Shown here: piece after piece, positions 56,986 to 64,000 of the stretch
Layout: each line of letters opens with the position of its first letter
Position numbering within the stretch: position 1 is the first letter of the stretch
Assembly: GCA_965285935.1 (NCBI GenBank)
Contig: OZ260665.1
Span: 25,792,001 to 25,856,000, forward strand
Length of the DNA stretch: 64,000 bases
Direction: 5' to 3'
Origin: Ophelia neglecta
Lineage: Eukaryota
Notes under the pieces: model-generated
Told to the model about the DNA's origin: nothing
Database searches by the model: none
The model's input: the letters and a program-made list of their open reading frames with translations, nothing else
Translations under genes and position numbers: made by a program

Positions 56986-59675
56986 AAAAAGCAATGGAAA
57001 CTGGAATTTTTAGATAACTCGTACCTCTATTACATGTACAAATTGTGACGTCTGATCAGCAAGAGGTGTTCTTTTTAACAAGGTGCTCTATTATATATAG
57101 AGAAGTGTGTGTATTAGGGGGGGGGGGGGGGTGTATTCCAGGGTCCTTATCAATATCTTACCCAGCCGTTACACCATAAACCTGCACTAGCAGAATAATG
57201 CGTGCTCTGGGCATGTCTGATGGTATCTTGATGAATGTCAATGATTTACAAATAATTGAAATAAATTTGAATTGAATTATTGGTGTAGTGCCTGGAATAT
57301 GCTTCCTATGCTTCAAACGTTTGTCTGTCTCACTAACCTAAGTTAAAGTTACTCAAATGCATTATTAACTTATCTATTCTTGGAGGTTGTGTCACTGAAA
57401 TGAAAATAAAACAAACGTATAGGTATATATATATATATATCTTATAGATAATTATGTAAGCGAGTACTAGTTATGTACTTTTGGGAGAATACCATACTTT
57501 GATGTTGTTCACCTAAAAGGTGATTCTTTGTATTCTTTTTGTACTGCGCGAGAACTTTTTAGTCTAGAAGTGAATTATTATACTGTGTCGTATTGTTTCC
57601 TTAGAAAAAAATAAGTTTATCCCTCATTGTTTATACTATAACTGTTATTACAAATCAGTTTATGTATTAGCTTTATTATTCTCTGCGTGAAATTAACCAA
57701 AATACATTGTTCTGAAACTGAGAGACTTTTTGCTCGGTGATCCGTATATTCTAAACCCCGAATACCCATGTGGGACAATATGACACAAACCACGGCTGTT
57801 ATGATAAAACGATATATAATTTCTGCACAAGTGTAAATAACACAGAACGATTAATGCTTATTGATATCCACAAACCTGTTATCGGAAATCGTATGTGCCA
57901 TTATTCAATGATTGTGTGCTGAAAGTCCCCGTGGAATTGTTATGATAATGAGTTCACCTGTCTCGCGATTTTTGATTATTTAGGGGACTTATCACAGATC
58001 AATTGGTGCCCTTAAACGCAAATTACAGTAGTATCCTTGATAAGTTTGCTCGGTCATCTGTTGACCGCTCTAAAATCCAACAATTACAAATACCGTTAAA
58101 TGGATTACTTTTCAAAGTTTCAGTTAAGAAGTATATATATGGTAATCATAAGGTAATGATCTGCAATCTTTAAACTTGTAAAACCGTAATAAAATATATT
58201 TCCTTGATGTTTCCATTGATCTATATTGACAAAACAATAACCTCTAGCTCTGTGCATCAAACAGGCATATTTTTTGTGAATACCTATATCCCAGTCTTCT
58301 TATTAGACTAAATTACAGAAACACGTAAACATTTTTGATGAAAAAGGTTATATATCTTAAATCATGTGCAGCATCTGCAACAGCGATGTACTGCGCGATA
58401 GAAATGGCAACAATTAAAAGTGTTTCAATCTGATTTTGCCTAACCGCTGTGCACTGATGCACCGATAAATGTAAATATGTAATCTACTATTGATACGCCA
58501 TTTGACCGATCAGACCAGAACGAAATGGGAACATCCATTAGCATTTACATTGAATGCATTCACTGGGCTCGGTGATATGTATAAAGAGCCTTTAGGATAA
58601 TTCTATTCTACATGCAACAATAGTTACTGATTATTAAGTAAAGTAAAACCTTCACCACACCTCTGATCTTGCTGCATGTTCCTTCAGGAGGGCAGTGTGG
58701 CATTATAACACAATGTATTGGTGATTACATACACGAATTAATAACAACAGTTTTACCTTCATCTTACCAGGCAGTTTACCAACCTATTTGATGTGTCAGA
58801 GTTGAGCATCTGCGTTATGCAATAAATCTTTCTCAGGTGGCAATGTGCGGATTTTAGAATTTTGGTAGAGGGAGAACTCGTCCTTATTTATGAGGGTAGA
58901 ATTAAGATATCACATAATATAGTCTTCTGCGCCCAGCCACTATTTACGTTACTAAAGCGATGTTGACTTTGGCTAGCTGCTGCTTCGTCCTCAAACTAAA
59001 AATTGTTGGTTGTATCAGCATTACTCGTGAGTTTTTATTAACAATGCACCCAATGCTGGTGACTTAGAGGAATAAATCTACTATGATGATGTTCAGTCAG
59101 ATATTTTCAGAACTGACATAAACTGTTTTCAAATAGACCTGTGTGTGTGTGTCATGGGCATAAACATGTAACCTTAAATAAGGGGAAAATCGGCAACACT
59201 CATTTTTCTTGCTTAAATAGTTACCTTTAAGTTCACAATATAGTATGGAGGATTCGACAATTATATACTTTGGTGATTGTGTGTGCGAGTGTGATTACTA
59301 CTCACTAATTATAAAGTAGTGTCAATTTATATTCGCAAAGGAATACCCAAATAAATAACCCCAATAGATGCCTTAAATACTCAAGACTCCCAGAAAATTT
59401 AATGATGTGGCAGATAATTTAGCGATATCTGCCATGCTCTCAGGGCGTCCGGCTTTGTTACTGACCTTATCTCCTCATTCAGCTCCTCCTTGCAGGTCCA
59501 GTTTTTGCCCATCAGTTCGCCCATGGCTGACTTGTTTATGTCTTGTATAGTAGGCGTTCTCCTTAGACGTTTTTCTAGTGATGTAAGTGTTGTGAAGTTT
59601 TAGTTGGTTTCTTTCACAGTATTTAGAGAAACCACTATATGTAGAGTTCTCATTGGGGGGGGGGGGGGGGGGGGA

Positions 59676-60110
59676 TGTAGCACGGGGATCTTATAAACAG
59701 CCAAGCTTCACTATGTGTTATAATCCGTTTTATTCAAGCACTAGCATGAAACTATACACGACCTTTCTCTCTCAAAGGCAACCAAGAACTCTCTTTCTTA
59801 ATAATCGTACATATTTTATATCTACGTAACTAACAACACTAATGTTTCTAAGCGTATTCAACTACTGCATAAATTAGTTAAATTCGCCTCCTGACGTTTG
59901 CTGGATTCACTACTTAGATATCCATGTTCCGAGTTAATTTGTTTGGATGTGCAATCAATCATATAGATCTGTTTTGACTTGTTTTGTCTTAGGCCTGTTC
60001 ACCTTGACTAAGCATTGTCGTGACCAAGCCTATAGCCAGGTATCACATCTAAAATGGGTGATATCTTCTAAAATATGCCTAAAGTTAAATGATTCTTATT
60101 AATTACAACA
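59676..60110 (-). repeat. 3' LTR (435 bp)
   Basis: Minus strand begins TGTTG and ends CTACA; TATAAAAT at 59813-59820 lies upstream of AATAAA at 59729-59734; immediately preceded by a PPT. The partner LTR is outside the window. Confidence 0.75.
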
Positions 60111-60123
60111 TCCCCCTACGCTT
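60111..60123 (-). promoter_or_regulatory. Polypurine tract (PPT)
   Basis: Minus strand AAGCGTAGGGGGA directly abuts the LTR TG. Confidence 0.65.
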
Positions 60124-61226
60124 TAATTTCAACGTCCTCGTTGATCTAAATGATTCTTTTTAAGAAATAACCAAAACTAAACGTCAAGAGGAGATGTAAT
60201 ATAAAATGAAAATAATATTTATATTAATTGAAATAATTCTTCTAAGTTTAACTTGGATATAATTGTTATATGAGATTTTTCTTTCATCTTTGATTTATCT
60301 CATAATTATAATAGAAATATCTAAAAATTTGAAATAACATATGATTGTATATGCGATATAGATTGATGCAAAAATCTTATATATGATAATCAAACACGTA
60401 TAGAATTCATAATAATTCGTACTGTAAAGCTTAGAATAATGAATCTAGAAATTATATATCATATTAAATTCAATAAAAAACTTGCTAATATTTAATATAC
60501 ATACAACACCGAATTAATAAGTAATCTTTTAGGTATAATAATACAGGTAAATATAATATATCAATATGTCTCAAATAAATAGCCTGGCGACACAACAACG
60601 TCAGCCGCTAGTAGATATTGAAAAGAACTTCGTTGTATTTAATGAAATAGTTAATGAGGAAAGTATATTAATTTATCCATATTTGAAAAAAAAAAATCAT
60701 CGAAATATCATGTGATCCATGTTTATATACAATCCATTTGAATATTTAACTGAAATTGTGAATTTATCCATGTGGAGTATCCTGATAGTGTAATGATTGA
60801 ATGGCACTTTTTTTTATATTTCCCGAATCGTGGTTGTTCTATTGATATACATGTGCGAGGGTGTCCTTGGTCGTGGTCGAGGGGCGGTCGGTCATCATGT
60901 GGGGTTTGTGAGGCGGGAGTAGCATCTAGATGGTTTACTAAATAAATGGGAAGAAAATCAAACCATATCAAACCCAGGTACAAATAGTAAGACATACACA
61001 GGAATGCAATTGGTCAATGCAACGTTAGTTATATAATAAGTAAAGAAGGATATATCATACCTAGTCACTAATGAGAGACGAATGTAAAGTGATTGTTGGT
61101 GGTAAAGTGGTGTTGGATTTATCTAATAACCCAGCGTCATGTGGGGCTGATGGTGAATTGATTGATGTCATGCCTGGCAGAACATATGGGGTGTCAATTG
61201 TTGTATTGTCTGGCCGATCAAAGTAC

Positions 61227-63914
61227 TTAACTCAATATAGGTTGACTCCCCTGGTGGATTTGATAAAAATGTGGTACGCCAGAATATTTAATCAAAAGGC
61301 CATAATGTACATCGGCTATTGAAGTCAGAACTGATCTAGCCTTACACCACAGGGCTGGGGGAATAATAAGTGAAGGTGGAAGGTGTATTTTAATGTCCTT
61401 ATCTTGCAAACGAGATTTTAAAGGGCCATCCCAGGTAAGTGTTAAATTTCTGGTCATCACATTGAAATGAAAATCTGCCAAGACGGGAGCGTCAATATAT
61501 TGGAACAAATTTGGTTCATGGGGAGGCGGCTTAATTGTAGCATAATGCCGGATCCAGATTGCAAATAAACTTTTAGGTACAAAGTCACATTCAATATTCG
61601 TTGGGGGGGGGGGGGGGTCCAAAGCAGCATGCAATTCATTTAGTGCAAATATATGGTCTACTTTTTCCTTGCTTCAGTAATAGGCTGTATGATTTGAAAC
61701 ACATGAATAGGAGAAAAGCGGTCATGCCAACTAGAAAATAGAGTGTATTGGGATTTGTGCTGGGTGGGTCCGGTGTGGCTAGGGGCGTTGGTGGTGGAGT
61801 GGGTGAGATTATTATGAAACAATCAATCGTTTTAATTGAAGCTTTTAATGTTAAAACAGTCAATGTTAGTAATCTATAGCCTCGGAAAAGGTAAAGAATT
61901 ATGGAAATTTGGAAGATATGCAAAGAAACAGTAATAAAGAAGAAGACAACTTGGAAATGTTTACTATCAAGAAAGGGAAAATTGACAAAATCTATATCTT
62001 CATTTGTGGGGGGTTCATATAGCACCTCCTTTTGAGTTTCAATGGCTTTTACTAGAGCTTCCATGTCTATGCCCATACGACGGTCTTCTTTGGTAATGTC
62101 TTTTAAACTTTTAGTAAAAGTATGTAAATTTGGAAGATGAATATGAATGGGGTGCTTATGATGTGCCAATCCGGTTATATTGAATAGTTCATGATCATTA
62201 TTAAATAGTACAACTGAAAATAGATTAATTGGGTGGAGGACTATTTGTTCAGATAAATTAACGGCACAATTTTGTATGCTTCGAGGTTGTAAGTAAGAGG
62301 CCAATCGAATGTCACAGCTACACGGGCTTTGTATTATGGCCGTGGTAGAAATTTTGATGGTCTTGGGACGTTTTGAAGAACAGTCCATGTAATATTTATT
62401 TTCTGGTGATTGAATTAGAATTTGTCCTGAAGATAAAGGGTAAATTAGAGGCTCTATTTTCAAATCTGGAAAATATTTTATTGAACAAAGAGTTTTCATT
62501 TCGTCAATTTTGTCCCAAAATATCGCACTAATACATGTATGTTTTGTCCTTTCTTGCAATGCTATTGGATATATATGGACACATATAATGGGTGGCTACG
62601 GTGCAAATAGCTAATTGGTGTGTGGAGAGAGTGGCATAGTACTGTGCATCTAGCGAGACCAAGAATAAGTCAGGGAGATTGGTAATTTTGGTGACACCTT
62701 TGCTGCCTGGCTCATTGTTTTGCACACTGATCGGGAATGTAAGGACTGAATATAGCTTAAATTCACTTGCAACCGTACTAACGGCGGCCTTTACATGTAT
62801 GTATATTACTTTACGGCCTATGACATATGTACTTATTGGCATGGAATAATAACTGTCTACTTCCTTAATAGTTAAATCCATACGTGAATCAAAATGTTTA
62901 ATTCTAGCCTCTAATTTTTGTAGTGCCAAGGCCATTGTTGCCGGTCTAACCATTGTTATGGGGAGGTGACCTTTCATTAAGGTCCCATAAGCGCCTATAA
63001 AATCTTGAATTGTGAGGATATGCTGTCGGAGTTCATTATTAAGAGGTGCGCTTTGTCGTATAACCAATTTTGTCATATATTGGAAAATGGAGAATCCTGT
63101 ACTATATACAGTAATTTCGTCCTGCATGGATGCATATTGATAAGCGAGGTTTTTAACTTTTGTAGGCCTATATGTTTCAGAAATCATTTTGGCATTATTA
63201 GAAATCGCAACTGTGGTAAGATTTAAACGCTGATCGGCCAGGGACATGTATTCAGTAAATCTATCCTTATGATGCCTTGATTGATCCTCTTGTTTGTGAT
63301 GGAGGTTTTCCAACTGTTTAACATGAGCATAAACTGTTTCCAAATCAGAGTGTCGAGCTAGGCCAAACAAGGCACTGCCCAAATCTCCTGTTAAAACAAA
63401 TTTTATTATATAACCATAGGTTCTTGTTTACTGTGGTATAAAAATGCGTGTTTTATTAATTTCAATTTTGGAATTTTTCAATCGCAAACTAAATGTATGG
63501 CTATGAGGGTAGCTTACCTATAAAGCCAAGGGGTGGTGTGCGTCCAAGCCTTTTATCAGTTCGTTTCTCTATTGTTTTAACCCATACGCTGTATTCACGG
63601 ACAAGCTCGTCTAGTTGTTTTGTAAGATTGCCATGCTCTAGAACCAAATCCTGATATATTTGACGAAGGACTTCATAAGAGTAGATAGCTGCTGCTGTCA
63701 TGTTTAGAGGACAGGTAATTTGTACCAAATCTTGTGTATAGTTTCCAAAATCTGGTTTTGGTACAACCAAAATTAAATCCACAAATGACTCTTCATTATA
63801 AAGAAGTCGCGGAGCACCTTGGAAAATGATTCCTGCATTAACACGTGGAACCAAGTCTGGCGGTTGTGAGGCTATTTGTGGCAGTAGCCATATTGTTAGA
63901 AAGTACCAGAGCAT
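61227..63914 (-). pseudogene. env: Envelope glycoprotein, baculovirus-F/errantivirus-like class I fusogen, intron-containing, with frameshift and nonsense lesions
   Basis: Signal peptide MLWYFLTIWLLPQIASQ (ATG 63914); furin-type RTDKR; spliced fusion peptide LGFIGDLGSALFGLA; heptad region; GHLPITMVRP; Cys-rich F1 (CTVATHYMCP, TCISAIF, CSCDI); TM FQVVFFFITVSLHIFQISIILYLF. Lesions: frameshift in TATATAT near 62570, TGA at 61636-61638, probable frameshift in the C15 run at 61603-61617. Confidence 0.82.
63388..63517 (-). other. 130-nt GT-AG spliceosomal intron inside env
   Basis: TTT ATA G|GTAAGCT ... TTTGTTTTAACAG|GA GAT TTG; AT-rich, contains stops; removal joins ORF 63501-63998 to ORF 62528-63382 in frame. 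Confidence 0.85.
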
Positions 63915-64000
63915 TTCAATATTTATCTGATCCGTGTGAGGAAAATGTAAGTCCGACATCCCTAATGAATAAAGTGAAGCAAAATGAACAAATTCCAAAT

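Follow-up and report, generated by a model that had tools for sequence, protein, structure and literature searches.

Ty3/gypsy elements of invertebrates that carry an F-type env gene have been described as 'ancient errantiviruses' by Chary and Hayashi (PMC13524379), whose account treats env as a single open frame and in whose main text the string 'splic' does not occur and 'intron' appears only in a reference. In Drosophila, according to PMC12992720, the elements gypsy, ZAM, Idefix and springer make Env from a spliced subgenomic RNA, and the first codons of errantivirus Env may be supplied by an exon further upstream; there the intron is the gag-pol region, and the fusion peptide lies whole within the main env exon. 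Cer1 of C. elegans, also a Ty3/gypsy element, produces CERV from a five-exon message while its introns stay in the genomic RNA that is exported and packaged, CERV being a nuclear export factor that has exons in common with gag, not a fusogen (PMC10309623). Functional introns are likewise found in active plant LTR retrotransposons, Ogre and EVADE, in which they tune gag/pol output and which have no env (PMC12786077), and splice sites lie inside env in HIV (those of tat/rev) and in TNV (PMC5220186). Introns in LTR elements and splice sites in env are both known, and no dedicated intron inside the ectodomain of a Ty3/gypsy env was found in the literature that we searched, which lay largely outside subscription journals. 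Foamy viruses, with Env-Bet, provide another case of splicing within env.

Here we describe an env gene whose fusion peptide is interrupted by 130 nt bounded by GT and AG, probably a true spliceosomal intron that was gained in this lineage, is kept in the RNA that is copied and is removed from the env message. Unlike the Drosophila errantiviruses, the element would thus have a small, non-coding intron some 130 codons inside env. It would also reverse the arrangement of HIV, in which the unspliced env region gives the full Env and splicing a side product (PMC5220186). Such a locus would be a natural case of intron gain in a viral fusogen gene that has survived repeated reverse transcription, and it opens to test the question of how a retroelement can leave the RNA that it packages unspliced and yet splice its env message twice.

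The window is a stretch of 64,000 nt (G000:C8:25792001-25856000) of a 762-Mb animal genome, and its features are collected in Table 1. The env gene is part of an element 13.5 kb in length, which has LTRs of ~525 bp (TG...CA), a motif resembling a primer site that begins TGG, a polypurine tract (PPT) and 4-bp target duplications, the last seen in 6 copies; the remainder of the window copy, with its gag, pol, ORF3, ORF4 and 5' LTR, is situated past the end of the window and reaches to G000:C8:25863782. In the pol of a young copy, Pfam places RVP_2 at 64-161 (weak), RVT_1 at 397-559, RT_RNaseH at 649-754, and Integrase_H2C2 and rve at 1034-1205, and Retrotrans_gag is also matched. The order of protease, reverse transcriptase and RNase H followed by integrase, with gag upstream and with LTRs, PPT and duplications, is that of Ty3/gypsy (Metaviridae). 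What the original prediction had called an endogenous retrovirus is an errantivirus in the wide sense, an invertebrate Ty3/gypsy element, and not a retrovirus of the vertebrate type. The copy in the window is decayed, with deletions in gag-pol and in the spacer, an env that lies in four frames, and LTRs that differ at 13 of 472 sites.

In its LTR-gag-pol-env order, its Ty3/gypsy pol, its many near-identical copies and its F-type Env, which has a basic cleavage site, a fusion peptide, a putative signal peptide and candidate anchor segments, the element resembles those described by Chary and Hayashi (PMC13524379). It differs from them in its split env and in the 2.9 kb between pol and env, which hold two extra ORFs, against a maximum of 1000 nt in their non-insect screen, and with both features it would probably be excluded by the filters of that screen (PMC13524379). 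More generally, surveys restricted to env frames that are unbroken and near pol would overlook elements of this kind or count them as dead, and env-carrying retroelements may be undercounted.

Table 1. Features of the env region and 3' end of the element in the window (window positions)
Feature	Position	Strand	Remark
First env frame	63501-63998	-	phase differs from second frame
Acceptor upstream of env start codon, predicted	63962..63985	-	rich in pyrimidines, no AG over 40 nt
Env exon 1, coding part	63518..63914	-	132 codons and one base
GT-AG intron of 130 nt (predicted), phase 1	63388..63517	-	no terminal inverted repeat
Possible second acceptor, intron nt 87	63431..63445	-	predicted only
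Second env frame	62528-63427	-	phase differs from first frame
Env exon 2	61061..63387	-	broken in window copy near 62590, 61630, 61230
Donor-like site overlapping env stop codon	61055..61063	-	identical in 18/18 copies
Polypurine tract	60111-60124	-	from sequence
3' LTR (TG...CA)	59588-60110	-	from sequence
4-bp target-site duplication	59584..59587	-	matched at 5' LTR

The insert begins with GTAAGC directly after AG and ends in TTTGTTTTAACAG, the last letters of which are ACAG, and it splits one codon, inside the env fusion peptide, after the first base. The original prediction that a GT-AG stretch of 130 nt divides the fusion peptide was confirmed in its ends, frames and coordinates; the cleavage site had been placed differently, and the alignment puts it three residues later, after the second arginine (R-x-G-R). 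The frame of exon 1 reaches a stop at nt 15 of the insert, the frame of exon 2 has its sole insert stop at nt 88, and the third frame has four, so that stops are present in all three. Since the stop at nt 15 precedes that at nt 88, a single frameshift cannot link the two halves.

Ends of the form GT[AG]AG and [CT]AG occur in just one of the 12,328 130-nt windows of the element body, the insert itself, and an insert of random sequence would have ends of this form with a probability of ~2e-4 when 4 equivalent registers are allowed. The donor ranks 6 of 515 among sense GT sites by an approximate scoring table, which was used for all donor scores given here. As in U2-type introns, a GT donor in consensus context is combined with a YAG acceptor, and removal restores a conserved frame that is gap-free against homologs with X at the split codon. 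The acceptor is CAG and follows 33 nt free of AG; its pyrimidine tract is only moderate (11 of 20), which counts against the reading as a true intron. The insert has a GC content of 28% in the reference copy versus 38-41% in the exons, and its insertion point, A/G|G, is the usual place for intron gain. An AATAAA is present within it, altered in a duplicated group of ten copies, and use of the predicted second acceptor would give no long open frame.

A query of 651 nt gave 29 matches at 27 places in the genome, which were aligned at the insert site together with one deletion copy. Both GT and AG are kept in all 25 copies that span the site, with an insert length of 123-130 nt, while two tandem copies are without the donor side through an 81-nt deletion and the 28th copy is without the region; there is no clean loss of the insert among the 27 places and the deletion copy. 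A pair of flanking motifs was found separated by 120-145 nt in 23 cases and by 0-30 nt in none. The 27 copies are not independent, as ten have a common nested insertion and four on C1 lie on one flank; by distinct flanks they represent at least 12 separate insertions, in a comparison that leaves out the copies at C7:11.55M and on C17. The LTR search scored 40 of 121 candidates, which makes the family count a lower bound. The LTR pairs of four of the 13 compared copies differ at 0, 0, 0 and 1 sites, and each of these four has its own flanks and duplication and an exon-2 frame open for about 768-782 codons. Retention in 25 of 25 copies, four of them with nearly identical LTRs, bears out the earlier claim that the intron belongs to the active element and not to a decayed copy, a claim that sister copies cleanly lacking the insert would have overturned.

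The insert alone has 27 genome matches, all 27 at the focal env. Its termini match as an inverted repeat at 5 of 20 positions, and it has neither the inverted repeats nor the dispersed copies of MITEs and Introners; that it is not a free MITE-like insertion agrees with the original prediction. It may possibly derive from an old, extinct donor element. Spliced and reverse-transcribed copies were sought among 20 internal deletions, and none was found. Two deletions with GT-AG-compatible ends were rejected as splices, one being 30 nt between repeated donor motifs and the other proving on inspection not to lie at splice ends.

The ten copies with the common nested insertion, which lies in exon 2, are those at G000:C5:58.6M, C7:78.9M and C5:83.2M and seven more. 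The three that were compared have kilobases of common flank at 99.3-99.9%, and together with the common insertion these flanks point to one decayed copy that is being carried along in the multiplication of a larger unit, either duplicated or mobile. Two further loci, G000:C1:121837135-121838255 and C5:32778182-32778825, are LTR-only, with tandem LTRs joined via a short piece of primer site or PPT; reverse transcription may have generated these structures as by-products that then integrated.

When the genome was searched at the protein level, 132 matches were obtained from 202 candidates, and their identities drop from above 80% to 32%, with nothing between. Twenty env loci were fetched, and 13 of them, from ~11 families, were aligned to the focal env, in which X stood for the split codon. 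Each of the 13 crosses the insert site in one frame, most of them gap-free, and eleven other env families of the focal genome are without the insert. The nearest family has an unbroken env frame of 1021 codons that matches both exon 1 (E 5e-9, at residues 20-128 of its Env) and exon 2 (E 5e-114), and it is sister to the focal env with an SH-aLRT of 100 in a quick tree of 57 rows, whose deeper forks are weak. A word-indexed protein search returned none of 5578 candidates; a full HMMER search returned 969 library proteins at E<=0.001, of which the best 150 were examined at the site. Among these, 115 have at least 60 residues before the site and are unbroken through it, 84 of them having G and 20 having S at the split-codon column; 10 begin 20-58 residues before the site, and 25, including a protein of Owenia fusiformis, begin at or after it. 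The latter may be fragments or similar split genes, and since gene calls without intron models render a split env as a short protein, the 115 of 150 overstate the rarity of the intron. Unbroken frames in 13 of 13 loci and in 115 of 150 library proteins are in keeping with the original prediction, which required homologous Envs to read continuously across this point.

No relative with an identity between 32% and about 90% was found in the focal genome, IMG/VR or the JGI metagenomes: 23 pattern matches in metagenomes yielded none that was confirmed, viral contigs held no related locus, and eight further pol-bearing places in the genome had no intermediate env. Judged from these alignments, gain of the intron in the focal lineage would be the simplest reading.

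Exon 1 encodes a signal-peptide-like start, an F2-like subunit, a basic cleavage site and the first half of the fusion peptide, and exon 2 the second half, a heptad helix, a cysteine-rich head, 2-3 hydrophobic segments and a long tail. The N-terminus is only moderately hydrophobic (mean 1.19 over 13 residues), and membrane-anchor segments are clear at exon-2 residues 474-567. The putative cleavage site is a minimal R-x-x-R that aligns with the homologs' R-x-[KR]-R and following [LF]xF[IV][GS]xxxxxLFG, and by this alignment a furin site would precede a hydrophobic fusion peptide as in F-type Envs. A model of the exon-2 ectodomain (pLDDT 87.9, 62 sequences) gave 33 PDB matches at E<=0.001 with low TM-scores (0.2-0.3), and the matches listed comprise F of RSV, hMPV and measles virus together with a single protein from a foamy virus; the ectodomain is accordingly modelled as a class I F fold. 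Baculo_F matches 23 of the 62 aligned members and not the query itself, and Pfam gave no match to the focal env frames themselves. Matches to a coronavirus spike helix profile were rejected as coiled-coil noise. The uninterrupted ectodomain frame of F-type Envs is lacking, the frame being split in all 25 spanning copies. Exon-2 residues 500-768 (~61061-61880) comprise further hydrophobic segments after the first anchor, a proline-rich linker and the long tail, which the focal and sister families have in common up to residue 724.

Selection was examined in 18 copies, with variants classed column-wise as private, which date from after insertion, or as shared, which were for the most part passed on by transposition. 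Exon 2 has 59 silent and 164 changing private variants against 37 silent and 36 changing shared ones (p=2.7e-4), and its shared dN/dS is 0.24 in the ectodomain and 0.32 in the tail, compared with private values of 1.11 and 0.58; for pol the values are 0.20 shared and 0.80 private. Along the lineages that copies share, purifying selection thus acts on env exon 2, a result obtained although three of the 18 copies lie on one flank and add neutral changes to the shared class, which works against it. In exon 1 the dN/dS is 0.20 shared and 0.69 private, not significant on its own (3 silent and 2 changing shared variants, p=0.32), and this counts against the reading as a true intron. Exon 2 has neither a start of its own, its first Met being at 47, nor a signal peptide, yet it is selected, which argues that the halves are joined; from the selection on exon 2, the split env gene appears to work. 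Within the insert, shared changes are found at 3 of 130 sites versus 40 of 604 silent env sites, a difference that is not significant (p=0.06).

If the insert is a spliced intron kept in the copied RNA, as we prefer, env would be expressed from a subgenomic RNA joined at the predicted acceptor just upstream of its start codon, and the second, small intron of 130 nt would then be removed from this message by the spliceosome. The packaged RNA would escape splicing as a whole, as in Cer1, and carry the intron along. That it is fully unspliced is suggested by the copies, which include no clean loss, and by the 20 deletions, which include no splice; the earlier expectation that genomic RNA keeps the intron follows from the same lack of clean losses. 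The earlier premise that an intron in env must be lost was too strong, since it is unspliced RNA that is copied, as exemplified by Cer1 (PMC10309623). No CERV- or Rev-like factor was identified in the focal element. In the simplest version, this would be a routine second intron of the env message with no regulated gate.

The original prediction had gone further and proposed a regulated splice acting as a switch on infectivity, which is supported by no result. Regulation would be added to the explanation that we prefer: with the splice controlled by tissue, stage or a silencing pathway, some cells would make only a short secreted piece and others the full fusogen. By its sequence, RNA that keeps the insert encodes 137 residues only, without an anchor, and the insert lies exactly where retention would remove half of the fusion peptide and the anchor while leaving the signal-peptide and F2-like part, as suits such a gate; the lack of loss among at least 12 insertions, the few shared changes in the intron (short of significance, as given above), and the second acceptor-like site and AATAAA within it, which could be chance, fit as well. 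Packaging of unspliced RNA, however, suffices to account for retention, the AATAAA is altered in the ten-copy group and stands in an AT-rich intron, and an insertion point usual for intron gain needs no function for its position, so we consider regulation unlikely. Were splicing regulated, spread from cell to cell would have a control point of a new kind. A broader version, in which a complex invertebrate retrovirus-like lineage runs its whole 3' half by splicing with the fusion-peptide intron as gate, is similarly improbable; in such a lineage retention would yield a secreted, anchorless Env piece and leave copying cells non-fusogenic, and a regulated second splice, possibly via a factor from ORF4 or ORF3, would turn on infectious particles. 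The sGP of Ebola is a comparable secreted, anchorless glycoprotein piece.

The intron might also be kept for a benefit to the RNA and not for control of the protein, an idea that we regard as tentative and rather doubtful. Splicing near the 5' end of the env message could aid export or avoid surveillance of intronless RNA, such as that by HUSH; alternatively, the donor could bind U1, which protects transcripts, and shield the 13.5-kb transcript from early polyadenylation. Donor-like sites at most 6 nt after the stops of ORF3, ORF4 and env (scores 5.9, 2.4 and 2.5), and a weak one overlapping the pol stop, against a background of 4.8% of all stop triplets, would point to donor use along the whole transcript, but the pattern is post hoc and is also seen at 4 of 21 ORF ends in other families (p=0.016), and the eleven other env families have no such intron. 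It is very unlikely that the insert is a gene-breaking insertion fixed in the family ancestor, leaving env dead and the element moving inside cells only. Env-less and env-deleted derivatives do exist in the focal and sister families, and insect errantiviruses have commonly lost env (PMC12992720); against this stand the exact GT[AG]AG and [CT]AG ends, which chance would rarely produce, the lack of inverted repeats and of any other copy of the insert, and an exon 2 that is open in the four young copies and under purifying selection on shared branches. Joining of the halves by a ribosomal shift or hop, or use of exon 2 alone, is scarcely credible: the exon-2 frame does have only one stop in the insert, but this follows the stop of the exon-1 frame, so that one shift would be insufficient, read-through would add ~43 residues to a fusion peptide of fixed length in homologs, and exon 2 alone would be without a signal peptide.

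The two extra ORFs between pol and env (L030:5862-6836 and L030:4779-5423, minus strand) measure 325 and 215 codons from stop to stop and are partly deleted in the window copy; their shared-variant dN/dS values of 0.45 and 0.48 are not significant. In ORF3 there is a cluster of Cys and His, and a weak lead points to a Sina/TRAF-like protein (score 0.91, below the threshold for recognition), with no match among PDB sequences and an unusable structure model (pLDDT 45). ORF4, for which a similarity search gave no match, has an arginine-rich coiled stretch that, as a guess, could suit a role in RNA export.

About a dozen families of F-type env are present in the genome, several of them with many open copies, and some (L064, L066, L067, L071 and L072) have a further ORF after env. 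In the sister family, at L061 (G000:C9:59725500-59735499) and also at L063, L078 and L076, what appears to be a gene of several exons lies on the opposite strand of the pol-env spacer and has no match to ORF3 or ORF4. This gene has 5 GTAAGT donors in 1.3 kb, versus 0.28 expected, and pyrimidine-rich introns, and one of its exons shows 74% protein identity between two subfamilies whose DNA identity is 67%.
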